Shown here: positions 1 through 27,403 of the stretch, one piece after another
How the letters are laid out: the number at the start of each line of letters is the position of its first letter
How positions within the stretch are numbered: the first letter of the stretch is position 1
NCBI RefSeq assembly: GCF_045862395.1
Contig: NZ_AP023087.1
Span: 196,744-228,743 of the forward strand
DNA: 32,000 bases
Direction: 5' to 3'
Source: Marinicellulosiphila megalodicopiae
GTDB lineage: Bacteria; Pseudomonadota; Gammaproteobacteria; Pseudomonadales; Natronospirillaceae
Position numbers and translations under genes: made by a program
Notes under the pieces: model-generated
Databases searched by the model: none
Told to the model about the DNA's origin: nothing
What the model saw: the letters and a program-made list of their open reading frames with translations, nothing else

Positions 1-1373
1 TCGGCACCAATGCCGTATGTGGACAATTGATCGTGATTAAATTGTTTAACTTTTTGATTGTTAGAACCCATCAATACATCAATTAAATGACTCGCACCAA
101 AACGTTGTTCGGTTCGATACACAGTGGATAACGCTTTTTGTGCCGCAATGCTGGCATCCCATGTTTTAACAGGCGTGATGCAGTTGTCGCAATTTTTACA
201 ATTGGTCTCAAGGCGCGCTTCATTAAAATAATTTAATAAATTAATGCGTCGGCAATCCACCGATTCACATAACGCTAACATCGCGTTTAATTTATTTTGC
301 TCTGCGCGTTTAAAATTTTCTTGGCCTTGAGATTGTGCCAACATCTGTTGTAAAAATACAACGTCTTGCAACCCATAAATTAACCAAGCCTCTGAGGGTA
401 ATCCGTCACGTCCTGCGCGTCCTGTTTCTTGATAATACGATTCAATGGATTTGGGTAAATCAATATGTGCCACAAAACGCACATCAGGTTTGTCAATGCC
501 CATACCAAACGCAATGGTTGCTACCATAATAATCCCTTCTTCTCGCAAAAATCTTGCTTGATGGGTTTGGCGTAATGGTGCAGGTAAACCTGCGTGATAA
601 GGCAACGCATTTAAGCCTTGCTGATTTAAATATTCCGCAAAGTCTTCAACGCGTTTGCGCGACAAACAATACACAATGCCACTGTTATTTAAATGCTTGC
701 TTTGAATAAAATTTAATAATTGTTTTTTAGCATTGGTTTTTTGGGTGATCGTATATTTAATATTCGGTCGATCAAAACTCGACACAAACTGCTGTGCATC
801 ATGTAACTGCAAGCGATCAATAATTTCTTGTTTGGTGCGCGCATCCGCCGTTGCCGTTAATGCAATGCGTGGTACGTTGGGAAAGTTTTCATGTAATAAC
901 GTGACACTTAAATAGTCTTTACGAAAGTCATGACCCCATTGCGACACACAATGCGCTTCATCAATGGCAAAAATAGAAATTTGCACCTGTTGTAATAAAT
1001 CAAACGTACGTTGCTGCGTTAAACGCTCTGGTGCAATATACAAAAAATCCACAATACCTTGGCGGAGCTCTTGTTCAATTTCATAAACTTGTTGTGCACT
1101 TAATGTTGAGTTTAAAAAACGAGCGTTTAAACCCAACTGCGCCAACGCATCGACCTGATCTTGCATCAGTGCAATCAAAGGCGAAATCACCACACCCACA
1201 CCAGGCCTTGCTAACGCAGGAATCTGATAACACAACGACTTGCCGCCGCCAGTAGGCATTAAGACCAATACATCTTCACCTGCAATGGCGTGTTCAATAA
1301 TGGCTTTTTGCTGATTACGAAATTCAGGATAACCGAAAGTGTTGTTGAGAATGTCTAGGGCTGTTTGATTCAT
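1..1373 (-). CDS. recQ: ATP-dependent DNA helicase RecQ (N-terminal ~457 codons; 3' end runs off the window)
   Basis: Absent from the ORF track because it is open to the window edge. Reverse complement from ATG 1373..1371 reads MNQTALDILNNTFGYPEFRNQQKAIIEHAIAGEDVLVLMPTGGGKSLCYQIPALARPGVGVVISPLIALMQDQVDALAQLG (motif 0, Walker A PTGGGKS). The rc of 921-974 gives IFAIDEAHCVSQWGHDFR (DEAH box). The rc of 1-59 is still in frame (..NHDQLSTYGIGA). Confidence 0.9.
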   Translation of the reverse strand, partial: MNQTALDILNNTFGYPEFRNQQKAIIEHAIAGEDVLVLMPTGGGKSLCYQIPALARPGVGVVISPLIALMQDQVDALAQLGLNARFLNSTLSAQQVYEIEQELRQGIVDFLYIAPERLTQQRTFDLLQQVQISIFAIDEAHCVSQWGHDFRKDYLSVTLLHENFPNVPRIALTATADARTKQEIIDRLQLHDAQQFVSSFDRPNIKYTITQKTNAKKQLLNFIQSKHLNNSGIVYCLSRKRVEDFAEYLNQQGLNALPYHAGLPAPLRQTHQARFLREEGIIMVATIAFGMGIDKPDVRFVAHIDLPKSIESYYQETGRAGRDGLPSEAWLIYGLQDVVFLQQMLAQSQGQENFKRAEQNKLNAMLALCESVDCRRINLLNYFNEARLETNCKNCDNCITPVKTWDASIAAQKALSTVYRTEQRFGASHLIDVLMGSNNQKVKQFNHDQLSTYGIGA

Positions 1374-2672: not shown

Positions 2673-3131
2673 ATGAGATTATCCGAACGCCAAGTCGGTA
2701 TGATTCAAGACAGTTTTAAAAAAGTATTGCCAATTTCTGATGCGGCGGCTCAAATATTTTACGATAAGTTGTTTGAGTATGATGCTGATTTACAAAGACT
2801 GTTTAAGCAAAATATGGGAGACCAGGGTAAGAAGTTGATGCAAACACTGGCCGTGGCAATTGGTGCATTAAAGGATTTAGACAAGCTTGTACCCGTATTA
2901 CAAAATCTTGCTGTAAAGCATTTGGATTATGGTGTGAAAGTGGAAGATTATACACCTGTGGGAAATGCTTTACTTTTCACTTTAGAAAAAGGTCTTGGAA
3001 ATAGTTTTACTCAAGAGTTGAAACAGGCTTGGATTGTTTTGCTAAAAGTGGTGTTTAATGTCATGCGGCAGGCTGCTTATCCCGATTTTGATCCAATCAC
3101 TTATAAAAATATAAAGCGTTATAATATTTAA
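2673..3131 (+). CDS. single-domain globin (sensor-globin/protoglobin-type haem protein)
   Basis: 152 aa. IQDSFKKVLPISDAAAQIFYDKLFEYDADLQRLFK and the proximal-His context LAVKHLDYGVKVEDYTPVGNALL align by eye with bacterial single-domain globins. SD GAGGGAA upstream. Confidence 0.75.
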   Translation: MRLSERQVGMIQDSFKKVLPISDAAAQIFYDKLFEYDADLQRLFKQNMGDQGKKLMQTLAVAIGALKDLDKLVPVLQNLAVKHLDYGVKVEDYTPVGNALLFTLEKGLGNSFTQELKQAWIVLLKVVFNVMRQAAYPDFDPITYKNIKRYNI

Positions 3132-13578: not shown

Positions 13579-13740
13579 GTAATTAATATCATTGAGGCAG
13601 GCTCAATTTATAAAAATCTAAAATGTATATTTTAAAATCAGATTGAAAATTGTATGCTAAGTTTTTAGAATGCTTAGGGTTTTGACTTTGATACTTAATT
13701 TTTTATTTGCTTTATTTAAAATATTATATCTGTAACTGTA

Positions 13741-13780
13741 AAAAATCCTCGATTTTGGTCGAGGACTTTTTTAGTTTTTT
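13741..13780. terminator. bidirectional rho-independent terminator
   Basis: AAAAAA-TCCTCGA-ttttgg-TCGAGGA-CTTTTTTAGTTTTTT. A-run and T-run flank a 7-bp GC-containing stem. Confidence 0.75.
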
Positions 13781-13834
13781 GAATTGGGTTGGTTTAAATT
13801 GTTGACAGCCATAAATAATATAGGCTTTACCTGC

Positions 13835-14498
13835 TTAAAATTTATCATTAGTGTCATGTTTGTAAGTATCGGTTATAAAGTCAGGAATCCCATCATCTTT
13901 GATGCCATTCAAGCCAGAAATACTTTTCGAGAATTGGTCATTTTTTAATTTTCAATTAATGATAACGTTTTGCTCTGCAGTCATATCAAATATATCTAAC
14001 GAGCTATACCAACCGCTGGCTGAGCCAAAAGTAAAAAATACACGGCAAGCATTCTCAACTTTATCTATTTCAGATTCAGTTAAATCATCAATGCCATCCT
14101 CGTTAAACTCTTTAATTGCACTTAACTCAAAAACAGTGACATCTAACATTGTTTCACCGTTTAATATAAGTCCATTACTGCCTTCTAATAATTCGACATC
14201 AATTTTTTCTAAATCTTCTAGTCCAAATACAATATAAGCAGTACATGAGGTTAAATGACTTTCATTACCAAAACTGCATCATCTATTTCATTTACCCAGC
14301 CAGTATTCTTCCCATAAAAAATATCATTTAAAGAGCTACTTCGAAATGCAAAACCCTCATTTTCATCATGATGTCTTAACCTCTGCAAAGTAAGCAATTA
14401 ATAAACCCATTAATGTGCTAACCAGCGACTTTTCAATCAAAGGTGGGAAGTTTTGACTTAAATGTTACGCCAGTAGGCGAAAACACATAAGGTGCCAT
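13835..14498 (-). pseudogene. frameshifted remnant of an acidic protein of unknown function
   Basis: Manual minus-strand translation gives protein-like pieces in different frames. They are MAPYVFSPTGVTFKSKLPTFD*, IEKSLVSTLMGLLIAYFAEVKTS*, HHDENEGFAFRSSSLNDIFYGKNTGWVNEIDDAVLVMKVI*, FGNESHLTSCTAYIVFGLEDLEKIDVELLEGSNGLILNGETMLDVTVFELSAIKEFNEDGIDDLTESEIDKVENACRVFFTFGSASGWYSSLDIFDMTAEQNVIIN* and KNDQFSKSISGLNGIKDDGIPDFITDTYKHDTNDKF*. Only the 65-aa piece (13952..14149) is in the ORF track. The 5' limit is uncertain. Confidence 0.5.
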
Positions 14499-14502
14499 TT
14501 AA

Positions 14503-14700
14503 GAATTAAATTCCGAATTTTTACCAAATGGTTGGTTTGTTACTAGGGCATTTGAACGTTGTATAACCTTAAAATCAGAAGGGTTTGAAGGCATTGGAAT
14601 GCCGAGGGATATTTATAGTGAAAATTTTAGCAAAGAGCAATCTTTTGAAATATTACCCAACGCAATGAATTTCGCAATTGAAAACATCAATAAAAAATAG
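14503..14700 (+). pseudogene. start-less 3' gene fragment (65 codons)
   Basis: Open frame immediately after a TAA: ELNSEFLPNGWFVTRAFERCITLKSEGFEGIGMPRDIYSENFSKEQSFEILPNAMNFAIENINKK*. No ATG/GTG/TTG before the internal Met, so it is likely a truncated remnant. Confidence 0.4.
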
Positions 14701-14784
14701 TTTATGGTTGAAATTTCATGCAATTTTACTTCTTTGTTCTATTCTGTAATTAACTGAAATTTTTATTAGTACTTTGGAAAAACT

Positions 14785-15843
14785 ATGTTGCAAGTTGTAA
14801 AGCAATTATCAAATTGGATTGGCGTAGCGCTTATAATGAGTGTTTGCTTACAAATTCATGCTCAAACGCCACCTGCGCCAGTGAACATGGTGATCCATTC
14901 AGGTTTTGTGAATCTGATGAGTGATCCAAAAGCGCTTGTATTTACTGATCTATATGAGGTGCCACCTAGTATCAAGCGTGTGGCTTTATATAACAGCAAC
15001 GATAAACTATCTAAGGAGATCAGTAAGCAGACTCGAACCATGATCGAAGGACAAATTTTATCAGAATTGTTAAATACAAAACGATTTGAAATTACAGCCT
15101 GTGTTGAATGCGATCAAATTAATGTCATATTAAATGAAGAGCAAGTCAAAATTGAAAAAGCCATTGAGAGCAATCAACAATTAAGGAAACTTGCAAAAAT
15201 CATTGCCGTAGATGCATTTTTTGTATGGAGTGCTCAAGTGGTAAACCAGCAATATCGAATCGATATGCGGTTGATTCGCGCCACAGACAATCAAGTATTA
15301 TGGACGCACCAGTATGCAAAAAAAACCACAGAAGAAGACGTGATAAAAGATTTTAAATCCACTCAATGGGAAATGTATTTAAGTAGCATTGGTTTTAAAA
15401 TGGAACGCACCTCCAGTACATTAAGTACTTTAAAATCTGGGCAGATTTCTGTGTTTGGGTTGCGTCGTCGTGAAGCGTCTACTTTTTATCCACATTTAAA
15501 TTATGGGTTAGGTATTGAGGTGTTTGGCAACATTACCAAGCGCGAATCCATGCCATTTTTTGGTGGGTCCATTAATGGCCGACTTAGTTTAGATTTTCCC
15601 GCATTACAAAAGTATATTCCTACCAGTACTTATATTGAAGTAGGGCAGAGTATATACAATCAAAGCCAAGCTTTAATTTTTAAATACGGACTTGAATTTC
15701 CGTTTGCTAAAAATGGAATCATTAATTTAGGTGTCTTATATTCTCCTGAAAATACAATCATTTGGGATGCGTTTGAAGACTATTCAACTGAAACCGTATT
15801 TGGTGGAGCAACTTATGAAATTATGCTGGGGTATCGACTTTGA
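14785..15843 (+). CDS. outer-membrane protein: signal peptide + periplasmic alpha/beta domain + C-terminal ~8-strand beta-barrel (first gene of the rotor-stator operon)
   Basis: Signal peptide ..WIGVALIMSVCLQIHA/QT. The C-terminal ~160 aa show eight amphipathic strands (LNYGLGIEVFG, FFGGSINGRLSLDF, TSTYIEVGQSIY, ALIFKYGLEFPF, GIINLGVLYSP, GGATYEIMLGYRL) ending in an OMP-like Y-x-L terminus. The N-domain pattern ..LAKIIAVDAFFVWSAQVVNQQYRIDMRLIRATDNQVLW resembles CsgG/LpoB/FlgO-type periplasmic domains (weak, by eye). Confidence 0.6.
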   Translation: MLQVVKQLSNWIGVALIMSVCLQIHAQTPPAPVNMVIHSGFVNLMSDPKALVFTDLYEVPPSIKRVALYNSNDKLSKEISKQTRTMIEGQILSELLNTKRFEITACVECDQINVILNEEQVKIEKAIESNQQLRKLAKIIAVDAFFVWSAQVVNQQYRIDMRLIRATDNQVLWTHQYAKKTTEEDVIKDFKSTQWEMYLSSIGFKMERTSSTLSTLKSGQISVFGLRRREASTFYPHLNYGLGIEVFGNITKRESMPFFGGSINGRLSLDFPALQKYIPTSTYIEVGQSIYNQSQALIFKYGLEFPFAKNGIINLGVLYSPENTIIWDAFEDYSTETVFGGATYEIMLGYRL

Positions 15844-16652
15844 ATATTCAATATAAAATTTTATCGTGCATTATTTTTCTATTATTTTCATTAACCGGCT
15901 GTACATCGATTAAGCAAAAAAAAGACATGAATGCACAATTAAATGATTTGCCGCAAAGCAGCGCATTACCTGCATTTGATATGCCTGCACCAGTTAAAAA
16001 AACAAAAGATGATTTTGGTGTGCTGGCCATTAAACAAGATGGTCCAGGTTATGAAATTAATTTAGCTCTAGATACAGGTGATGAAAATGTTAGTTTTCAA
16101 ATGGATTTACCGGAGCAATCCTCTGCAAGCAAAAAACTTGCGCAACAGGATAATTCACAGTTACCTAAAACCGCAATAACAAAAATAAAAAATGACGAAC
16201 TTGATGGTTTTATCGATCCGATGACTTCAACTGATTCTGTTGAAAAAACAAAAGTGATGCCTAACAATATTACCTCAACACAGCAAGCAAAAATAGACAG
16301 TGCTTTTACTGGAAACACACCTGAAAACAATGTCAGTAATCCAAACAACAGTAACCTAAACAACAGTAGCCAAAACAATAGTAACCCAAAAAACAATGGG
16401 CCAAGTGCCAATGATTATTTAGTGTCTGCACAAACGCAATTTTATGAAGACAATTATATGGGCGCGTTAACGGATATTGAACAGGCTATTTTACAAGACG
16501 ATACTCAAGCATTGTCCTATGCAATTAAGGGTTCTATTTTATACAAGCTTGGCAACAAAAACGCAGCAAAAATCGCATGGCAAAAAGCGTTAAAGTTGAA
16601 TCCAAAATTATCATCAGTTGAATTAAGTCTGCAATATTTAGTAGGGCAATAA
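15840..16652 (+). CDS. TPR-repeat lipoprotein with Asn/Ser-rich linker
   Basis: TTG start overlapping the upstream stop (TTGA at 15840-15843). Lipobox FSLTGC. Low-complexity middle part. C-terminal TPR-like repeats (YEDNYMGALTDIEQAILQD..., GNKNAAKIAWQKALKLNPK). Confidence 0.65.
   Translation: MNIQYKILSCIIFLLFSLTGCTSIKQKKDMNAQLNDLPQSSALPAFDMPAPVKKTKDDFGVLAIKQDGPGYEINLALDTGDENVSFQMDLPEQSSASKKLAQQDNSQLPKTAITKIKNDELDGFIDPMTSTDSVEKTKVMPNNITSTQQAKIDSAFTGNTPENNVSNPNNSNLNNSSQNNSNPKNNGPSANDYLVSAQTQFYEDNYMGALTDIEQAILQDDTQALSYAIKGSILYKLGNKNAAKIAWQKALKLNPKLSSVELSLQYLVGQ
16341..16400 (+). repeat. 15-bp in-frame tandem repeat x4 inside the TPR-lipoprotein gene
   Basis: ccaaacaacagtaac / ctaaacaacagtagc / caaaacaatagtaac / ccaaaaaacaatggg, encoding PNNSN-LNNSS-QNNSN-PKNNG. 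Confidence 0.85.
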
Positions 16653-16653
16653 G

Positions 16654-18585
16654 ATGAAACGGATACCGTTATTAGTAATTGGCGCACTGGGTTTATTTTG
16701 TGTAAACCTCAAAGCAAATGAAATACAGCAATTAGATATTGTTGATCAACTTGAGCACCGTGTTGCAAGAGATGTGGCTGCCTATTTAGGGCACAATCGT
16801 TTTATCGTAAATATTGATGTCGCATTGTCAGCGATTACCTTGCAAAACAATCAAGTAAATTCTTCTCAAAATAATCAAGCAGAAATGGATGCCTATGAAA
16901 ACTTCAGTGAAACCATTTCATCACTTGAAGAAGTTATTCGTGTTTTGGAAAGTCAACAGCCTAAAATCAGTGAAATATCATTACCGGGATTACCCTTTGC
17001 TGCCCCAGAAAAAATTGACATTCCGGAATCGGAAGCACTGACCCTTTTAAATAAAACTATAACGGATTATCAAAACAAAAAACCCATAGCAACCTCAACA
17101 CCCAATAATGTTGCACCCACACTTACAGTATCAGAACAAACAAAAATTGATAATATTTTAGTAACCCTAGTAATTGATGAAACCATCGATGCAGAGCAAT
17201 TAAATTTTGTTAAATTTTTGATTGAAGACAAGTTAAATATCAATCCATTTCGTGGTGATAAAATCAGTGTCTTTCCAACTAAATTTAATTTAGAAACTTT
17301 TGAGCCAACGTTAAATTTAGATGAGCCCCTTGATTTAGACTCACCGATTAATTCTCAATTGAACGAAGATAAAAATACAGCAATGGAGCAGCCAGCATTA
17401 TTTGCATGGAATCAACCATTAACTTGGATATTGCTTGTACTTGTGGTTATGTTTTTAATGATGTTACTACTTTTAATTAGACGCAACCAAGGTGCTACTA
17501 ATTTGCAGTCAAATGCTCAGGCAGACACTGGATCAGTGACAGCATATAGCGACACCCATAAAAAACCTGACAATGTTTATGCTTATTCAGAAAAAATTAA
17601 AAACCTGAAGCAAGATATTATTAGCTCGGGATTGAGTCATCCTGAGCGTACAAGTTTAAGAGTGGATGAATTATTGTTTGAGCCTAATAATCAAGCCATG
17701 CTTGCCTGTGCGTATTTTGTGTTAGGTGGATCATTATTCAGAGGGTTATTTCCAAGCGTATCTCAAGCACAGCTTGTGACAATTTCACAATATCTAGACG
17801 AACAACAATTAGAGGATGAATCCATCGTACAAGAATTAAGTGCGCTGCATTTAATTTTATCTAAGCACAATGACACTAAAAGCACGACTACCACATTAGC
17901 GCCATTTCAATTTTTAAAACGCCTAAATAACAATCAAATTATTTATTTATTGCAAGAAGAAGAGCCAAGAATTAAAGCATTAGTACTTAGTCAGTTACCC
18001 GCGAATCGCGCCGCTGACATCATTCATAAACTCACCCCAGACCAGCAGGGGCAAGTTGCCTTTGAAATAGGTCAGTTTAGTGAATTTCCTATTTCTACCT
18101 TTAAAGATATTGCCCAACGTTTAGCCAAAAAATCATTAAATGTCCCAAGTTTTGAAAATCTCAATACCGATGGAACAAGTTTGATGATTGATTTATTAGA
18201 CAACATGAAAAATGAAAATGAACATCAATTTTTACAACAACTTAAAAATCAATCGCCTGAAATGTATTATCGTATTCGACAAATTTATTTTACTTTTGAA
18301 GACATTAAACGCACGCCTACTACTACATTAAAAGATGCTTTTGTAGATTTAGATCGCAAACAATTAGCGTTTGCATTAATGGGTGTGGATGAAACGTTAC
18401 TGCAACATTGTTTAGATTCCATGCCAAACAAATTAAAACAAGCCGTTAAAGATGAAATTGAATTCAGTGATGTAAAACCAAGTACCGATATGATTGAATC
18501 TGCTCGCAAACATATTGTTAAACATATTCGTGCATTAATTGAACTTGGTAAAATCAATATGCAAGACTTAGCCACGCTAGAATAA
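16654..18585 (+). CDS. bitopic membrane protein: FliF-C-terminal-like periplasmic region + TM + full FliG-like (N/M/C) cytoplasmic region
   Basis: 643 aa. Signal/anchor MKRIPLLVIGALGLFCV. Periplasmic aa 24-255 has LEHRVARDVAAYLGHNRFIVNIDVAL and ILVTLVIDETIDAEQLNFVKFLIEDKLNINPFRGDKISVFPTKF, the same pattern as the FliF segment before TM2 (..VAVVV...RGD..V....F). TM is LTWILLVLVVMFLMMLLLLI (aa 256-275). Cytoplasmic aa ~320-643 aligns by eye with FliG: LQEEEPRIKALVLSQLPANRAADIIHKLTPDQQGQVAFEIGQF (FliG_M) and YFTFEDIKRTPTTTLKDAFVDLDRKQLAFALMGVDETLLQHCLDSMPNKLKQAVKDEIEFSDVKPSTDMIESARKHIVKHIRALIELGKI (FliG_C). Confidence 0.7.
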   Translation: MKRIPLLVIGALGLFCVNLKANEIQQLDIVDQLEHRVARDVAAYLGHNRFIVNIDVALSAITLQNNQVNSSQNNQAEMDAYENFSETISSLEEVIRVLESQQPKISEISLPGLPFAAPEKIDIPESEALTLLNKTITDYQNKKPIATSTPNNVAPTLTVSEQTKIDNILVTLVIDETIDAEQLNFVKFLIEDKLNINPFRGDKISVFPTKFNLETFEPTLNLDEPLDLDSPINSQLNEDKNTAMEQPALFAWNQPLTWILLVLVVMFLMMLLLLIRRNQGATNLQSNAQADTGSVTAYSDTHKKPDNVYAYSEKIKNLKQDIISSGLSHPERTSLRVDELLFEPNNQAMLACAYFVLGGSLFRGLFPSVSQAQLVTISQYLDEQQLEDESIVQELSALHLILSKHNDTKSTTTTLAPFQFLKRLNNNQIIYLLQEEEPRIKALVLSQLPANRAADIIHKLTPDQQGQVAFEIGQFSEFPISTFKDIAQRLAKKSLNVPSFENLNTDGTSLMIDLLDNMKNENEHQFLQQLKNQSPEMYYRIRQIYFTFEDIKRTPTTTLKDAFVDLDRKQLAFALMGVDETLLQHCLDSMPNKLKQAVKDEIEFSDVKPSTDMIESARKHIVKHIRALIELGKINMQDLATLE

Positions 18586-18599
18586 TAAAGAGAAAAAAC

Positions 18600-19412
18600 A
18601 TGCCTTTTATAAGTACAGTTATTGGATTTGTTGGTGCTTCGTTATTATTTATATTTGCTATTACATCAAGTACCGATTCCTACTCAATGTTCTTAAGTCC
18701 ATCCAGTTTTTTATTAGTACTTGGGGGGACATTGGCAGCAAGTATTATTTCATTTAATTTATTTGATGTATTAAAAGCATTAGGGGCAATATTTAAAACA
18801 CTTTCAAATGACAAGGACACCAATCAAGTATTAAATAAAGATGTTAAAAAAATAATTGATTGGAGCAAAGTGTATCGAAAAAAAGGGTTGGGTAGTTGGA
18901 TTGACTCATTATCAAGCAAAGATCAAAAAGATAAATTTTTAAATTATTGTTTTGAAATGGTGCAAACTGGATATGAGCAAGAGGAATTACGTTATTTAAT
19001 TTCAGCAAGAATAGAGGCTGATTTTACGCGCAAAGCCCAGCCTGCAAAAATATTACAAACCATGGCAAGTTACGCTCCAGGCTTTGGTATGGTTGGCACT
19101 ATTATCGGCTTAATTATTATGCTTGATACGATGGGTGGCGATATTTCTGCATTAGGTAAAGGCTTGGCCTTAGCGTTAATTACCACGCTATATGGTGTAC
19201 TTTTAGGACAGCTAGTATTTAAACCCTGTGCTACCCATTTATTTAATAAAGTAGAAGGAGAATATTTTAGGCATCAAATTATTTTGGAAGGTATTATTTG
19301 TATTTTACAAAAACGCGATTCTATTGCGATTCAAGATCATATTAACGCTCTGTTGCGCCCTAAAGCCTATTATCAATTAAGCAATGAAAAAGAAGGAAAG
19401 TCCGATAAATAA
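18600..19412 (+). CDS. MotA/PomA-family proton-channel stator subunit
   Basis: 270 aa, 4-TM layout with a large cytoplasmic loop. Conserved YAPGFGMVGTIIGLIIML and GLALALITTLYGVLLGQLVFKPCA, including both MotA-type prolines. Confidence 0.85.
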   Translation: MPFISTVIGFVGASLLFIFAITSSTDSYSMFLSPSSFLLVLGGTLAASIISFNLFDVLKALGAIFKTLSNDKDTNQVLNKDVKKIIDWSKVYRKKGLGSWIDSLSSKDQKDKFLNYCFEMVQTGYEQEELRYLISARIEADFTRKAQPAKILQTMASYAPGFGMVGTIIGLIIMLDTMGGDISALGKGLALALITTLYGVLLGQLVFKPCATHLFNKVEGEYFRHQIILEGIICILQKRDSIAIQDHINALLRPKAYYQLSNEKEGKSDK

Positions 19413-20076
19413 ATCAAAACCAACAGCAATGCGCAGACGACCTCGCGCAGCAGACAATGGCGATGATTGGTTATTAACTTATGCCGATGTGATTACACTG
19501 CTGCTTGCTTTTTTTGTAATGTTGTTAACCATCACCGATGTAAACGAAGGAAAAATGGAAGCGTTAAAAGAAGCGCTCTCTGAAAATATTACCAAGGGAG
19601 AAGTCAATACACCGTTAAAAGATATTGAAACCATGGTAGAAAATGCATTTGCTCTTAAAGGTGCGTCTGAATTTACAGAAGTAGAAATCAATCAGGATGG
19701 AATCAGCATAGAGTTAAATAATGTTTTAATGTATCCATCTGGTCAAGCGACTTTATCGGGTAATGCTTTAGATATTATTGAATCTTTAGGTCGTTCAATA
19801 CAGCCTTATATAAAAGATCATTATGAAATTTGGATTGAAGGACACACAGATGATATCCCTATTCATACTGAAAAGTTTGATTCAAACTGGGAATTAAGCT
19901 CAATAAGAGCGATTAATATTGTGCAAGCATTATTAGCCCAAGGTATTGATGCGAATCAATTAGTTGCGGTAGGGTTTGCAGATTCGCGACCTAAGAAAAC
20001 GGACTTGGTTTTAACGCAGCAGGAACAACGTAATATGAATCGCCGAGTGGTGATTCATATTAAGCGGGTTTATTAA
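19384..20076 (+). CDS. MotB-family stator subunit with OmpA-like peptidoglycan-binding domain
   Basis: DDWLLTYADVITLLLAFFVMLL (single TM with the invariant Asp, D35). C-terminal OmpA-like region GHTDDIPI...SNWELSSIRAINIVQAL...GFADSRP...NRRVVIHI. The start may instead be ATG 19429 (MRRRPR...), 16 nt after the MotA-like stop. Confidence 0.85.
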   Translation: MKKKESPINKSKPTAMRRRPRAADNGDDWLLTYADVITLLLAFFVMLLTITDVNEGKMEALKEALSENITKGEVNTPLKDIETMVENAFALKGASEFTEVEINQDGISIELNNVLMYPSGQATLSGNALDIIESLGRSIQPYIKDHYEIWIEGHTDDIPIHTEKFDSNWELSSIRAINIVQALLAQGIDANQLVAVGFADSRPKKTDLVLTQQEQRNMNRRVVIHIKRVY

Positions 20077-20079
20077 TAT

Positions 20080-22947
20080 TTATTGAGTGATTTTATTTAA
20101 TTCAATGACACCTGCATTAAGTTTTAATTGATATTGCACTGAAATATTATTTTCATCACTTGAAACGCTTACAGTATATTCACCATCTTGTTTGAACTGA
20201 TGCATCATAGTTAAAGTTGCGTCTGTATGATATCCATCACCAAAATCCCAATGTAAGGTTTTCACTTGCGAACTTGTGCACTGCTGATTTGAAATAATGT
20301 TTGCCATTGCTGAAAACTGAATTGTATTTGGATTTAATTCATCGTAAGAACTTTGTAATGAAATCGAATTAAATTGTGCATTGCAATTTTGGGTTAGTTG
20401 TTCGTCAGAAATGACTATGCTGGTTAAATTTTCCCAATCACCATACTGAGAATAAGTAATGTTATACGTACCCGGTTGGCTGTAGATATGTGTAAGTGAG
20501 CCAGTATTATAATATTGGTCAATACTTTCATCACCAAATGAAATCGTCAAATTGTCCGTTTGACTTGAGCATATTGATTCTCTTACAAATACATTTAAAT
20601 TCACTTGATTATTAATTTGTGAAATGAATTCTGCTTCAACTGGATTTATTGCCTGGCAATTAGAGACTGTAAATAATTCAGGCAATATCGAAACAACAAA
20701 TTCATCATTTAATTTGATGTCATAGTATTTTGAAGCATTGGCAAATTGATGAGTTAAATAATCTGTATTAAATTCGAATGCAGCACTGCCATTATCTAAA
20801 TCCAAAATTGGTCGAGTGCTGTATGCATAATTACAAATTTCAGAATTTTTAGCAGTTAAATCAAAAATAAATGTGTTATATGTATTTGTATCCACCCTAT
20901 AATTTAATTCCCAGTCACATTGTACAAAATCATCTGATAATGGTTCATTTAATTCAAAATTAGTTTGTCTAATTAATTCTAATGTAGATTCATTATCACT
21001 AATGATAATTTTATATTTTGATTCTAAATCCCCTGTTGCTGTATTTGCAGTAACAATATAATTGCCATTACGCAAATAGGTATGTGAAATACTTCCACCA
21101 GTTTTTGCTAGATATCCATCACCCATGTCCCAATATACTGTGTTTAGCGAACTCAAGGTGCAGCCATCTTCATTTAACTTCATTATTTCAGCATTTAAAT
21201 TAACGCTGTTGTTACCTTTTATAGATTGCATTAATGTGACGTTAATGAATTCAGAAAAATCCGCACATGAAAATTCAAGATCACTTTGATCAATCGTCAC
21301 GGTATAAATATCATCTGAATTACTGTTATCGCCAGTTGAATTGTAATTATTTAATGACTGTCCATCAAATTTAATTTGATAAACGCCAGCTTCTGAAAAT
21401 ACATGTTCGATTAATCCTTGTGAATAATAAGAAGGTGCACCATCTCCAAAATCTATTTCAACTAGACTACCATTATTGCTTTTACAGCCAATGTAGATGT
21501 CATCGTTATAATTTAGTGTTAATTTATTTTTATTTAATGAAATCACTTCAATTAAACTAGAAGTATATAGGCATCCAGTATCTGTCGATATGGATGTATT
21601 TCCTAGAGTTGTATACACAATTTCATTATTCAATTTTATGTCGTAATTTAAATCTGGATTTTCATAGATATATTTGACGTAATCCGTTTCTACAGAAAAA
21701 GGTTCACTTGAATCACCCATGTCAATGATAGGGCGAATAATATTTTGCATATCACAAGTGTCTGGATTTGTAACATCAACTGCTAAAATCATAATATTAT
21801 AGGAGTCATTTGCTAAAGAAACATCAAAATGACATGCATCAAAATTACCTGAATCAATTTGATGTTGCCCAATTAGTTTTGATTTAAATTCATCCTGTTC
21901 AAAAGTAATTTCATATATTTTCTCGATATTATTTTCGGGGGTTCTAAGCGTAACAATATACGTTTTATTTTGTTTAAATTCATGAATGATCGAACCATCA
22001 AAATTTGAATCTACATATGTTTTAGTGTTTCTTCCATCTCCAAAATTCCATTCAAAATATTTTACATCTGATTGTGTGCATTTGTCTGCTGAAAGCATTG
22101 TTCCTTTTGGAATAAAATTAATTTGTTTATTATTATTTTCATCAACTACAAATGTCAATTGAGTAATTGGTATTTCCCCATCACACTGATTAATTAAATC
22201 GTCTGCAGAAATATTAACTAACAACTCTTCATTATCTTGATATTGCTCGTATCCAGGTGGAACGAAATTATTAAAATTAGCCAACGATAAGCTATTAAAT
22301 GTAATGTCGTTATATTCGCCGATATCGGAAAAAATATGTTTTATTTTTCCTTGGTTGTAAACTTCGGGCTGGCTACCATCATTAAAATCGATTAAGACTT
22401 GGGCTGAATTATGCTCGCAACTATAATATCCTTCATAGCCATAATTTAAAATTAATACATTATCTATAATAGACTCAATGCTGATTTTCTCTGGAGAACT
22501 AATTGAGCAAGAAGTAATTGAACCTGCATCTCCATATATAGTCAGCGCTAATTCGTTATTTAATTTAATGTCGTATTCCATAAAGGATTTTTCATATTCA
22601 TAAGTAACATAATCGCCTTCCACAACAAATGGGGCGCTTCCATCGCCCATGTCTATAGTTGGTTTTTGCAGATTAGTTTGATCGCATGTAGCTTCATTTA
22701 ATAATGACACTGACAAAATAACAGAATTGTAATCGTAAATTTTCTTTACGGTCCAAATGCACTGATCTGGATCTATCACGACTAATTCAGTTTCGATGGA
22801 ATCACTTGATTCAGTTTCTGTATTTGTTTCAATACCAGATTCCGTATTAGTATCCAATTCTGAGTCGGTGGAATTATTCGCTTCAACCAAGTTATCTAAA
22901 CAAGACGAAAGTAATAGCGTAACAAAAAATAGGTTTAAAGTTTTCAT
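20080..22947 (-). CDS. 955-aa lipoprotein made of nine PKD-like domains (3 super-repeats of 3)
   Basis: Lipobox LLLSSC, then an acidic Thr/Glu linker. Recurrent PKD hallmarks are WNFGDGRNT, WDMGDGY, WDFGDGY, IDFGDGAP and IDMGDGSAPF. Three ~300-aa super-repeats each begin with a C-x-W/F...C pair. SD GAGGGA upstream. Confidence 0.8.
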   Translation of the reverse strand: MKTLNLFFVTLLLSSCLDNLVEANNSTDSELDTNTESGIETNTETESSDSIETELVVIDPDQCIWTVKKIYDYNSVILSVSLLNEATCDQTNLQKPTIDMGDGSAPFVVEGDYVTYEYEKSFMEYDIKLNNELALTIYGDAGSITSCSISSPEKISIESIIDNVLILNYGYEGYYSCEHNSAQVLIDFNDGSQPEVYNQGKIKHIFSDIGEYNDITFNSLSLANFNNFVPPGYEQYQDNEELLVNISADDLINQCDGEIPITQLTFVVDENNNKQINFIPKGTMLSADKCTQSDVKYFEWNFGDGRNTKTYVDSNFDGSIIHEFKQNKTYIVTLRTPENNIEKIYEITFEQDEFKSKLIGQHQIDSGNFDACHFDVSLANDSYNIMILAVDVTNPDTCDMQNIIRPIIDMGDSSEPFSVETDYVKYIYENPDLNYDIKLNNEIVYTTLGNTSISTDTGCLYTSSLIEVISLNKNKLTLNYNDDIYIGCKSNNGSLVEIDFGDGAPSYYSQGLIEHVFSEAGVYQIKFDGQSLNNYNSTGDNSNSDDIYTVTIDQSDLEFSCADFSEFINVTLMQSIKGNNSVNLNAEIMKLNEDGCTLSSLNTVYWDMGDGYLAKTGGSISHTYLRNGNYIVTANTATGDLESKYKIIISDNESTLELIRQTNFELNEPLSDDFVQCDWELNYRVDTNTYNTFIFDLTAKNSEICNYAYSTRPILDLDNGSAAFEFNTDYLTHQFANASKYYDIKLNDEFVVSILPELFTVSNCQAINPVEAEFISQINNQVNLNVFVRESICSSQTDNLTISFGDESIDQYYNTGSLTHIYSQPGTYNITYSQYGDWENLTSIVISDEQLTQNCNAQFNSISLQSSYDELNPNTIQFSAMANIISNQQCTSSQVKTLHWDFGDGYHTDATLTMMHQFKQDGEYTVSVSSDENNISVQYQLKLNAGVIELNKITQ

Positions 22948-23867: not shown

Positions 23868-24875
23868 ATGCCAATAGCCAGAAGTAAACTCGTATCTGTA
23901 GAGGCGACGCCATTTTACCATTTGATAAGCCGTTGCTGTAGGCAGTGCTACATTTTGGGTAAGGATGCAGTGACTAAAAAGGATTATTCACACAGACAAG
24001 AATGGATTGAAAATCGATTAGAAGAATTGCCCTCGATATTTAATATAAAAGTAGCATCCTATGCGATCATGTCAAATCATTTTCACCTAGTGGTGTTTGT
24101 AGATAAAGACGAGTCGAGTAAATTATCGGATTTACAAGTCATTGAGCGCTGGCATAAAATTTATAATGGCACAGTATTAACTCAAAAATATGCCAAAGGT
24201 GAGCTTTTATCAGAAATTGAGATGGATTTGGTAAAAGAGCGAGCGGATGAGTTTCGCAGTCGACTAATGGACTTAGGTTGGTTCATGAAATGCATTAATG
24301 AGCCATTAGCACGAAGCGCCAATCGAGAAGATAATTGCACAGGAAAATTCTGGGAAGGTCGTTTCAAGTCTCAAGCATTGCTTGATGAAAAAGCATTATT
24401 AGCCTGTATGGCATATGTGGATCTCAATCCAGTGCGCGCAAAAATGGCAAAAACACCAGAAAAATCAGCACATACCAGCATCAAAAAACGCATCGAACAA
24501 TCATTAAAAACAAATAAGCCAAATAATCAAACAGAGCAAGTCAAAGGTCTTTTAAACTTTGTAAGTCAATCAAGGCAAGATATGCCTAAAGGGATTCCAT
24601 GCAAACTGACAAGCTATATTGAATTAGTAGAATGGACAGGAAGGCAGTCCAGAAAAGGAAAAGCAGGTAAAATTGATTCAGATATACCAGAACTTATGCA
24701 GCGACTCAATATAGATCCAGTTAAGTGGGCACATATTACCTCAAATTTCGAATCAAGTTTTAAAGGCATTGTGGGTGAATCGTTATCCATAATAGAAACA
24801 GTCAAAAACTTTGGGCGAGAGCGTGCATTAAACGTATCAAACTGCTTGTATTATTTTGGAAAACAAAAAAAATAG
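23868..24875 (+). mobile_element. IS200/RAYT-like HUH-Y1 transposase gene (335 aa)
   Basis: HUH motif MSNHFHLVVF. Catalytic-Tyr motif ACMAYVDLNPVRAKMA (Y-x3-NPVRA). SD AAGAGGA upstream. Flanked on both sides by related repeats in inverted orientation. Confidence 0.8.
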
Positions 24876-26317: not shown

Positions 26318-27403
26318 TTAATGTATGTATAACGATGTGATCAAGCGTTCAACCCAAAATGCACTAAATTGCTGATTTGATAGTTTACTGAGTTCAACCA
26401 ATGCACGTTTTACAGGTCTCTGATAATCGGACTTATAATAATGTCCATGTGTAATCGCTTCATAAGCATGAATAATAGACAGACACATAGCGCCAGGGTG
26501 AATATCGTTTTCAGTCAGACCTTTAGGGTAACCTAGACCGTTGACCCATTCGTGATGCTCATGCAAAATTCTTGAGGCTTGCTGCCAATGCTCGCTTTGG
26601 GATAATAAAAAACTACAGGCATAAACATGTGCTTTGATTTGTTTTTTTTCATTTTGGGTCATGGGCTGTTCGCGAGATAGCAATTTGATAGGCAAAAACG
26701 ACATCGCAATATCATGTGTATAAATAGCCGCTGCTATTTGTTCAAAATCAAAATCGTATTGGCTGCCGTCTAGCATTCTATGCGCAAGATTGAGTAATCG
26801 ATTGGTTCGTCCTTTCCATTGAGGCATTCTATTTTCGACGCTAGGAATTAAATTGGCAAAATAAGTTAAATCAGGATATTGCTCAGGAAACTGATTGTGA
26901 AGCATCGATTCTTCTATTTCTATTAATGAAGGTTGGTTGTGATTCAACAGAGCAAGGGCTTTGAGAATTTGTAACTCAGGGTCGCTATGGGTTGATATTT
27001 TATTGATTTGTATTCCAACATCTTCATAAAGTTTTGCGTCATAAAACACAGTCTCCGACTCAAGTGAGTCATTTAAAAATGTTTTAACATGATCAAGTAA
27101 TAATAACGAAAGATCGCCAATTTTAGGATTAAATTCAAGCTCACCTTGTCGAACCAAACTTAAAACGTCTTCTAATTCTTGTAATACAGGAATTAACGGC
27201 GGTAATTGTGCAATACTTAAATTGCCTTTAACTGTGTGGATATTTCTAAATAGTGCGCTGAGCTTTTCAGTCTCTTTAGGTTGATGCTCCAATTCAATAA
27301 TTAAATTTTCAGCATCTGCTAAATTTTCATGAAATTCTTCATGCAGGTTTTGCAGTAACTCTTGATTTAACTGTTCAGTTCTAAATTCTAACATTGTATG
27401 CAT
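26318..27403 (-). CDS. HPt-domain / HD-GYP-domain fusion protein (putative c-di-GMP phosphodiesterase or degenerate sensor)
   Basis: N-terminal LSALFRNIHTVKGNLSIAQL is an HPt phospho-His motif (HxxKG). The C-terminal part has YTHDIAMSF ... IKAHVYACSFLL ... HEHHEWVNGLGYPKGL (HD-GYP signature HHExxxGxGYPxGL). The start may be the second ATG (27394), which has better spacing from GGTGGTGGA. Confidence 0.7.
   Translation of the reverse strand: MHTMLEFRTEQLNQELLQNLHEEFHENLADAENLIIELEHQPKETEKLSALFRNIHTVKGNLSIAQLPPLIPVLQELEDVLSLVRQGELEFNPKIGDLSLLLLDHVKTFLNDSLESETVFYDAKLYEDVGIQINKISTHSDPELQILKALALLNHNQPSLIEIEESMLHNQFPEQYPDLTYFANLIPSVENRMPQWKGRTNRLLNLAHRMLDGSQYDFDFEQIAAAIYTHDIAMSFLPIKLLSREQPMTQNEKKQIKAHVYACSFLLSQSEHWQQASRILHEHHEWVNGLGYPKGLTENDIHPGAMCLSIIHAYEAITHGHYYKSDYQRPVKRALVELSKLSNQQFSAFWVERLITSLYIH

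Follow-up and report, generated by a model that had tools for sequence, protein, structure and literature searches.

A natural FliF–FliG fusion encoded beside a predicted flagellar-type stator in Marinicellulosiphila megalodicopiae

A 32,000-nt stretch of the 4.65 Mb chromosome of Marinicellulosiphila megalodicopiae strain TOYAMA8 (contig NZ_AP023087.1), referred to here as the window, carries an operon-like array of five co-directional + strand open reading frames (ORFs) that overlap or abut and span 14785-20076 (proteins 1 to 5; Table 1). Their successive junctions are a 4-nt TTGA overlap, a 1-nt gap, a 14-nt gap and a 29-nt overlap; coordinates, lengths, overlaps and gaps all proved identical on recheck to those given in an earlier reading of this DNA that used the letters alone (the sequence-only reading). 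Public annotation names such proteins ‘FliG C-terminal domain-containing protein’, as in the case of protein 3, or ‘hypothetical’. Analysis of the five proteins revealed components of the flagellar motor that form an apparently undescribed, self-contained set: in protein 3 the C-terminal half of FliF (the RBM3 domain, a transmembrane (TM) helix and the start of the cytoplasmic tail) is naturally fused to an apparently complete FliG, and this protein is followed by a MotA/MotB-type pair. To our knowledge, MotAB-type stators pass torque to no other receiver than FliG, which has so far been regarded as confined to the flagellum. Full-text searches, in which coverage of subscription journals was incomplete, found no published description of a membrane-anchored FliG, of a natural FliF–FliG fusion or of this operon, and the literature searched contained no characterization of the family as a flagellar accessory either.

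Protein 3 had been predicted to match FliG and FliF profiles and to join a periplasmic segment like that of FliF to a cytoplasmic region resembling FliG, and both profile searches and structural models agree with this. In Pfam, FliG_M (PF14841; 53.6 bits, 2.7e-14) and FliG_C (PF01706; 81.3 bits, 7.5e-23) score above gathering, and FliG entries in the PDB match down to 7.8e-21. YscJ_FliF_C reaches 22.1 bits (2.3e-4) against a gathering score of 23.8 in protein 3 itself and is precomputed as present in most members of its family. A profile of that family matched Salmonella FliF (6scn_A) at E 5.6e-9, with profile positions 40-334 falling on FliF 233-533, a stretch that comprises RBM3, TM2 and the beginning of the cytoplasmic tail. 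The AlphaFold model (predicted local distance difference test score (pLDDT) of 68; domains 70-88, linkers <50) features a periplasmic alpha-beta-insert-beta-alpha-beta domain and a helix (255-288) across the membrane. Foldseek of this model returned many FliF RBM3/S-ring structures for the N-terminal part at a probability of 1.0 (7bk0, 6sd3, 8zdt and 8z4d, the last of which is itself a FliF–FliG fusion), and full-length FliG structures (3hjl, 1.6e-9; 8umd; 8umx) align with the model over about 320-350 columns. The N-terminus resembles a cleavable signal peptide rather than TM1 and is followed by one TM helix, while the LPGLP (110-114) and RGD (200-202) motifs of the periplasmic domain are family-invariant. 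Pfam FliG_N gave a weak match (17.6 bits) at a position other than residues 308-407, where the FliG_N-like helical domain is placed by Foldseek and by a split homologue described below.

The two halves of the fusion depart from their flagellar counterparts in several respects. RBM1 and RBM2 of FliF house the export gate, and FliG_N binds the C-terminus of FliF. Protein 3 has FliF and FliG in one polypeptide, shows no match to PF01514 YscJ_FliF (RBM1-RBM2) in a periplasmic part of only about 190 aa, and has no confident beta-collar. Unlike soluble FliG, it is a type-I membrane protein with a signal peptide and a TM helix, is encoded outside any fliF-fliG-fliH cluster and scores 90.9 bits against a cutoff of 226.7 for the fliG equivalog TIGR00207. 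Engineered or spontaneous FliF–FliG fusions of Salmonella and Vibrio assemble rings (PMC6079021, PMC10941966, PMC11481574), so that the covalent link in protein 3 is mechanically plausible. Those laboratory fusions contain full-length FliF and work inside the flagellum, whereas protein 3 is natural, shortened and a member of a conserved family with its own stator.

Alignment to the FliG proteins of T. maritima and A. aeolicus (PDB 1lkv and 3hjl) showed that the torque helix of protein 3 reads MPNKLKQAVKDEIEF and includes K593, D600 and E601. K593 takes the position of E. coli R281; it is invariant in a 25-sequence family and K/R in 42 of 48 diverse members. The hinge glycine, Gly507, is present in all 48, and the MFxF position is occupied by YFTF, with F548 conserved in 42 of the 48. 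In contrast, the FliM-binding EHPQ...R motif has become EEPR...E (E471): across the 48 members the Glu is kept in 47, the His position is variable and the R160 equivalent is mostly Glu. With the stator-contact residues retained and EHPQR lost, these positions suggest an interface that still works towards the stator but not towards the switch. The FliG part also has more in common with the FliG proteins of Aquifex and Thermotoga than with those of Vibrio or Salmonella, which points to an old separate lineage and away from a recent duplication of a host flagellar gene.

The last two genes had been read as a MotA-like channel and a MotB-like subunit, and all three expected Pfam families are present: MotA_ExbB in protein 4 (1.4e-22), and MotB_plug (56.8 bits, 1.6e-15) and OmpA (48.7 bits, 1e-12) in protein 5. 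The nearest solved relatives are C. sporogenes MotA (2.9e-30), B. subtilis MotA and Vibrio PomA (1.7e-23) for protein 4, and MotB, PomB and MotS for protein 5. Protein 4 aligns end to end with the MotA/PomA structures, although the acidic partner residue varies; Arg93 of protein 4 (PomA R88, E. coli R90) and Asp35 of protein 5 are invariant in four aligned module stators. Plug and OmpA-like peptidoglycan-binding features tell flagellar (FIT) from generic (GIT) ion transporters (PMC12505986), and by its plug, its Asp and its peptidoglycan anchor the protein 4/protein 5 pair is a predicted FIT stator. The A subunits of FIT stators have 4 TM helices and an enlarged cytoplasmic interface for generating torque, which bears the conserved Arg. 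In NCBIfam, protein 4 scored 155.8 bits for MotP (cutoff 394), 142.7 for MotA (340) and 130.3 for PomA (341), and the best match of protein 5 was MotD (170.2 bits, cutoff 283). All equivalog cut-offs are thus missed, which indicates that the two proteins are not orthologues of any named stator. Matches of protein 4 to tolQ (E 0.005) and exbB2 (E 2e-4) lie far below the cut-offs.

Proteins 1 and 2 are predicted to face the outer envelope. The outer-membrane (OM) beta-barrel assigned to protein 1 from its letters is present in the AlphaFold2 model (pLDDT 79.7) as an 8-stranded barrel, preceded by an LpoB/TolB-N/PelC-like domain. Foldseek matches in the PDB were NspA (1.9e-6), OmpA, OmpX and Ail for the barrel, and LpoB (6.5e-5), TolB, GNA1162 and PelC for the periplasmic domain; the family profile found no match among PDB sequences. 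Pfam FlgO is weak in protein 1 itself (16.4 bits, gathering 22.6), but among Pfam families it ranks first in 20 of 30 homologues (best 1.2e-4), with FlgT_M first in 5 of the 30. FlgO and FlgT are H-ring proteins of the Vibrio flagellum, and the periplasmic domain of protein 1 can be placed in the FlgO/FlgT_M/LpoB/CsgG fold class; protein 1 differs from Vibrio FlgO in falling below the Pfam cut-off and in adding the OM barrel. Its homologues form 96 clusters, every one annotated ‘hypothetical’, and their adjacency to the module is conserved. Protein 2 had been described as a lipoprotein with tetratricopeptide repeats (TPR). The lipobox stands, while the repeats amount to one C-terminal TPR region (about 190-265) for which TPR_1 (1e-5) and TPR_2 (1.4e-5) both fall slightly below the Pfam gathering score; this region follows a small conserved N-terminal domain (about 56-92) and a low-complexity linker, and conserved columns are seen in a four-way alignment. 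A TPR gene occurs in every module variant. TPR stator scaffolds are known from Campylobacter (PflA/PflB) and spirochaetes (FlcA), and protein 2 is likewise a TPR protein, a lipoprotein and encoded beside a stator. None of the module proteins has a sequence match to PflA/B, FlgP or MotX/Y in Pfam or NCBIfam.

The predicted locations of the five proteins therefore cover the inner membrane, periplasm and OM, which could also suit a non-rotating envelope system energised by the proton-motive force (PMF). In such a system the FliG-like ring would be no more than a docking and activation platform for MotAB-type channels, whose work or ion flux would go to OM partners, much as in Tol-Pal and Ton, or serve ion homeostasis or signalling. 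5:2 motors power many non-flagellar envelope processes, and Tol-Pal, Ton, GldLM of type IX secretion (T9SS), AglRQS and Zorya all pair a MotA/ExbB-family ion-driven motor with dedicated envelope partners, as the module does (PMC9389320, PMC12505986). Free rotation is also not obvious if the ring is tethered to OM proteins. We nevertheless regard this explanation as quite improbable. The non-flagellar motors have generic (GIT) stators without plug/OmpA features, or the long-tail ZorA, and none has a FliG-like rotor, whereas the module combines a flagellar (FIT) type stator, with plug and peptidoglycan anchor, with a FliF/FliG-like partner. The torque-transfer features (the basic residue at 593, the hinge Gly and the MFxF-like motif) are kept, and the TolQ/ExbB scores are negligible. 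No TolA- or TonB-like partner, and no Pal, was found in the window flanking ORFs scanned.

An exhaustive profile search with protein 3 returned 189 clusters (50% identity) at E <=1e-30. Of the best 150, nearly all measure 560-720 aa and share one layout, in which a signal peptide or TM segment, a periplasmic domain of ~200 aa and a TM helix precede FliG; the TM layout was taken from a hydrophobicity scan of 147 family members, and the family comprises at least ~140 clusters. Gene neighbourhoods were compared at 52 loci; a locus search with the family reached almost only Oceanospirillales. The five-gene order, whose conservation elsewhere had been proposed as a check, is kept in about 40 Oceanospirillales loci and is permuted or split in other phyla. 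Wherever the contig was long enough, the 34 reference-genome loci and the metagenomic loci showed all five genes in the same order; the reference-genome carriers are Bermanella, Oleispira, Thalassolituus, Oceaniserpentilla, Gynuella and Saccharospirillaceae. One locus (L024, JBLHVV010000051.1), from a bin labelled Crocinitomicaceae (Bacteroidota), shares 32% identity with the query, like Bermanella modules, and has the same gene order; it is probably a mis-binned Oceanospirillales contig.

Outside this group, a Fibrobacterota metagenome-assembled genome (L044), L046 and a genome of the Fibrobacterota–Chlorobiota–Bacteroidota (FCB) group (L047), the last carrying proteins with T9SS tails, have the order FliG fusion, protein 1-like, TPR, MotA, MotB. 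Homology to protein 1 was seen for the 350-aa protein of Fibrobacterota (hhalign probability 95.8%), but the positional equivalents in L009 and L050 escaped the protein 1 profile, so that the OM components of the variants need not all be homologous. In L049 the protein 1/protein 2-like pairs are duplicated. A split module is present in Marinimicrobia (L050, GCA_022571215.1, 1167-8933) and encodes a 329-aa protein, three TPR proteins upstream, MotA, MotB, a 386-aa mini-FliF and, immediately after it, a 310-aa FliG. The mini-FliF contains PF08345 YscJ_FliF_C above gathering (41.1 bits) and aligns with the fusion family at an hhalign probability of 97.9%, over a stretch that takes in RBM3 and the TM helix and extends as far as residue ~343, while the 310-aa FliG has N, M and C domains including Pfam FliG_N. 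No other flagellar genes lie within 8 kb of this split module. The cluster of the 310-aa FliG has 29 members, one of them annotated ‘hypothetical’.

Resemblance to Zor proteins and the state of the flanking DNA raise two further explanations, a Zorya-like anti-phage defence or the decaying remains of another flagellar locus. In PADLOC, protein 5 matches ZorB profiles with 70 bits, and the surroundings include a RAYT-like gene as well as an AT-rich non-coding stretch. However, the ZorA match has 17 bits and covers the TM core only (~80 residues of the 545-aa profile), protein 4 does not have the long tail of ZorA, and genes for ZorC, ZorD and ZorE are missing; with only generic ZorA/ZorB resemblance and no other Zor matches in PADLOC, the Zorya reading was rejected. 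Five intact ORFs conserved at 30-80% identity across dozens of genomes in several phyla exclude decay, and we give these two explanations almost no credence.

The sequence-only reading had also reported that no other flagellar, chemotaxis, Tol, Ton, Zor or Gld genes lie nearby, which a scan bore out: of the 25 flanking ORFs of at least 100 aa, 24 were searched against Pfam or NCBIfam and none matched these families, fliH, fliM and fliN being likewise missing from the window flanking ORFs scanned. It had further asked whether homologues always sit inside flagellar clusters, and this is not so in 50 of the 52 loci. The two others have export genes close by: in L046, fliQ-fliR-flhB (2-2019) stand directly upstream of the module, and in L048, fliO-fliP-fliQ (1-1497) lie upstream, 8 kb from it. 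In none of the 52 loci do the flanks contain a second FliG, MotA or MotB. The gene directly downstream of MotB in L046 encodes a response-regulator-GGDEF protein.

These two loci bear on whether the operon serves the canonical polar flagellum as an accessory, providing an additional set of stators, scaffold proteins and, anchored in the membrane, a FliG-like adaptor. Such an adaptor would become part of the flagellar motor or encircle it, or would store or regulate stators, for example under particular loads, ions or growth states. The resemblance of protein 1 to the H-ring proteins FlgO and FlgT of Vibrio and the existence of TPR stator scaffolds in Campylobacter and spirochaetes are in line with such a role. 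The host is motile with a monopolar flagellum, and its motility varies with growth substrate (PMC11966569). The genome paper of Oleispira antarctica counts ‘two stator systems MotAB and PomAB’ (PMC3759055); the module stator may be one of the two. Still, the module has a FliF ring-building domain of its own and an apparently complete FliG, parts for which an accessory to the stator alone would have no need; the motif that binds FliM is gone, the FliG part is nearer to Aquifex/Thermotoga than to Vibrio/Salmonella FliG, and the locations of the 50 loci away from flagellar genes are scattered. On balance an accessory role appears unlikely.

The DNA upstream of the operon also speaks to this point. 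A bipartite element, whose sequence suggests a promoter function, lies about 40 nt before the protein 1 start codon (about 40-60 nt in orthologous loci). In orthologous loci (L001-L042) the DNA upstream of protein 1 again carries the motif tCAT(A)GC-N17/18-cTAT(G/T)CT, and the k-mer CTATGCT is present in 22 of 30 upstream regions of protein 1. Polar-flagellated Gammaproteobacteria use sigma-54 and sigma-28 for their flagellar genes, as in the Vibrio and Pseudomonas hierarchies. Upstream of protein 1, no sigma-28 site (TAAA-N15-GCCGATAA) was found in 30 loci, and no sigma-54 site (TGGCAC-N5-TTGC) save one weak match in L028, which is modest evidence against membership of the module in a flagellar regulon and thus against an accessory role. 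In Bermanella-type loci the motif halves form the inverted repeat CATAGC...GCTATG, so that an operator bound by a dimeric regulator is just as possible. Oleispira-type loci have an extra hairpin in the 5' untranslated region, CTGACATCA...TGATGTCAG.

Taken with the domain data, we favour a reading, with a probability of about 0.55, in which the operon encodes a self-contained, PMF-driven rotor–stator module derived from the flagellar motor core, or related to it, with OM-side partners and without export or axial parts. The likeness to that core covers RBM3, TM2 and tail of FliF, the M and C domains of FliG and probably its N domain, a MotA/PomA-type stator and the key stator–rotor residues; the module differs from it in being without RBM1/RBM2 and the EHPQR FliM site, and in having no FliM/N, export-gate, rod, hook or filament genes linked to it. 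In Oleispira antarctica the identified flagellar and chemotaxis genes sit in one 75-kb region (PMC3759055), which favours reading the operon as a separate module.

A mechanism is proposed in which the RBM3-like domain of protein 3 would oligomerise into a periplasmic ring, with the attached FliG (N, M, C) forming a cytoplasmic torque ring. Flagellar FliF assembles into a ~33/34-mer ring. MotA5B2-type units of proteins 4 and 5 would unplug, attach to peptidoglycan by their OmpA-like domain and let H+ or Na+ through at Asp35, and would turn or push the FliG_C ring through the basic residue 593 and MotA Arg93. As the periplasmic/OM partner, proteins 1 and 2 would either scaffold the stators, in the manner of the Vibrio H/T rings or Campylobacter PflAB, or receive the work. 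The ring would lie outside FliM/CheY switch control.

Several observations weigh against a self-contained module. The host has a monopolar flagellum, carriers look flagellated wherever information exists, and no module-bearing genome has been shown to be flagellum-free; together with the positions of L046 and L048 near export genes, a flagellated host makes a functional tie to the flagellum possible. L048 (6403-11917) and L051 (1-6683) encode the FliG fusion with TPR and small OM-barrel proteins but no adjacent MotAB, and the stator of these variants may be encoded elsewhere or shared. Within protein 3, acidic residues at positions D600/E601 are shared by no more than about half of the broad family, the RBM3 insert and the linkers are modelled with low confidence (pLDDT <50), and ring formation is something we infer from RBM3 homology only. 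The stronger claim, that the module is an autonomous, non-flagellar, ion-driven rotary or torque-applying ring spanning the envelope in Gammaproteobacteria, Fibrobacterota, the FCB group and Marinimicrobia, thus stands in our view at slightly less than even odds. If real, such a ring would either have branched off from the flagellar motor and been put to another use, or be a simpler relative of that motor's rotor–stator core that has survived, doing some envelope job.

Should the reading as a self-contained module be correct, a rotor–stator core can exist and be selected alone, which bears on the modular assembly of the flagellar motor in evolution. The operon would then represent a new class among the envelope machines powered by 5:2 motors and a minimal five-gene system for studying stator recruitment and torque generation, and the ‘extra MotAB’ and ‘FliG’ annotations of marine genomes may not be flagellar.

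Table 1. Features of the operon and its surroundings in the window (nucleotide positions of the window; residues are those of the protein named).
Feature	Residues	Position	Strand	Details or basis
Globin ORF		2673-3131	+	152 aa
AT-rich stretch		13579-14784		1.2 kb
Terminator-like hairpin		13746-13765		within the AT-rich stretch
Promoter-like bipartite element		14717-14745	+	CATGCA (14717-14722), 17-nt spacer, TATTCT (14740-14745)
ORF 1, protein 1		14785-15843	+	352 aa
Protein 1 periplasmic FlgO/LpoB/TolB-N-like domain	about 60-185		+	after signal peptide; invariant CxxC C106/C109
Protein 1 8-stranded OmpA/NspA-like OM barrel	about 190-352		+	invariant RRRE 227-230
ORF 2, protein 2, lipoprotein		15840-16652	+	270 aa, TTG start; lipobox LTGC, Cys21
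ORF 3, protein 3		16654-18585	+	643 aa
Protein 3 periplasmic RBM3-like domain	25-211	16726-17286	+	profile vs PDB, Foldseek, invariant columns
Protein 3 single TM helix (= FliF TM2)	255-280	17416-17493	+	hydrophobicity, model
Protein 3 FliF C-tail-like segment, then FliG_N-like helical domain	308-407	17575-17874	+	Foldseek, split homologue
Protein 3 FliG middle domain	419-497	17908-18144	+	Pfam FliG_M, alignment
Protein 3 FliG C-terminal (torque) domain	507-640	18172-18573	+	Pfam FliG_C, alignment
ORF 4, protein 4, MotA/PomA/MotP-type stator A subunit		18600-19412	+	270 aa, 4 TM, cytoplasmic loop
ORF 5, protein 5, MotB-type stator B subunit		19384-20076	+	230 aa; TM Asp35, plug, OmpA-like peptidoglycan-binding domain
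PKD-domain lipoprotein		20080-22947	-	955 aa, lipobox LLSSC, long internal near-repeats
RAYT-like ORF		23868-24875	+	335 aa; 42.5 bits vs cutoff 80; no Pfam match
Hpt/HD_5 protein		26318-27403	-	361 aa

Both flanks had been taken as signs of accessory DNA. To the left, the supposed gene debris corresponds to an AT-rich stretch (about 28-34% GC) with no convincing ORF and short fragmentary frames on both strands, within which a terminator-like hairpin is found. To the right, the repeat-rich lipoprotein was recovered as the PKD-domain protein, whose gene is convergent with the module, 3 nt separating the two stop codons; the transposase reported beyond it was not, as the match is limited to the C-terminal third of the profile of REP-associated tyrosine transposases (RAYT), and the ORF is RAYT-like rather than a standard transposase. 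The notion of accessory DNA itself is weakly founded: the G+C content of the module is not distinctive, and the neighbourhoods of its relatives vary and are largely housekeeping (pyrG-eno-ftsB-ispDF in L001, fumarase/Pterin_4a in L004, mutL-miaA...ksgA in L008 and L009, pgk-gap in L047).

No RNA families were found in the window at Rfam gathering thresholds. The flanking ORFs encode PhoX, an Ldh/Mdh-type dehydrogenase, MntP, solute-binding proteins, ABC (ATP-binding cassette) transporters, the PKD-repeat lipoprotein, a glyoxalase and an HD/Hpt protein. The last of these has an unusual signalling architecture, in which an N-terminal Hpt domain is combined with an HD_5 (HD-GYP-like) domain. The globin ORF matches only the N-terminal globin part (21-133 of 399) of NO (nitric oxide)-inducible flavohemoprotein, and could be a stand-alone globin or a truncated gene.

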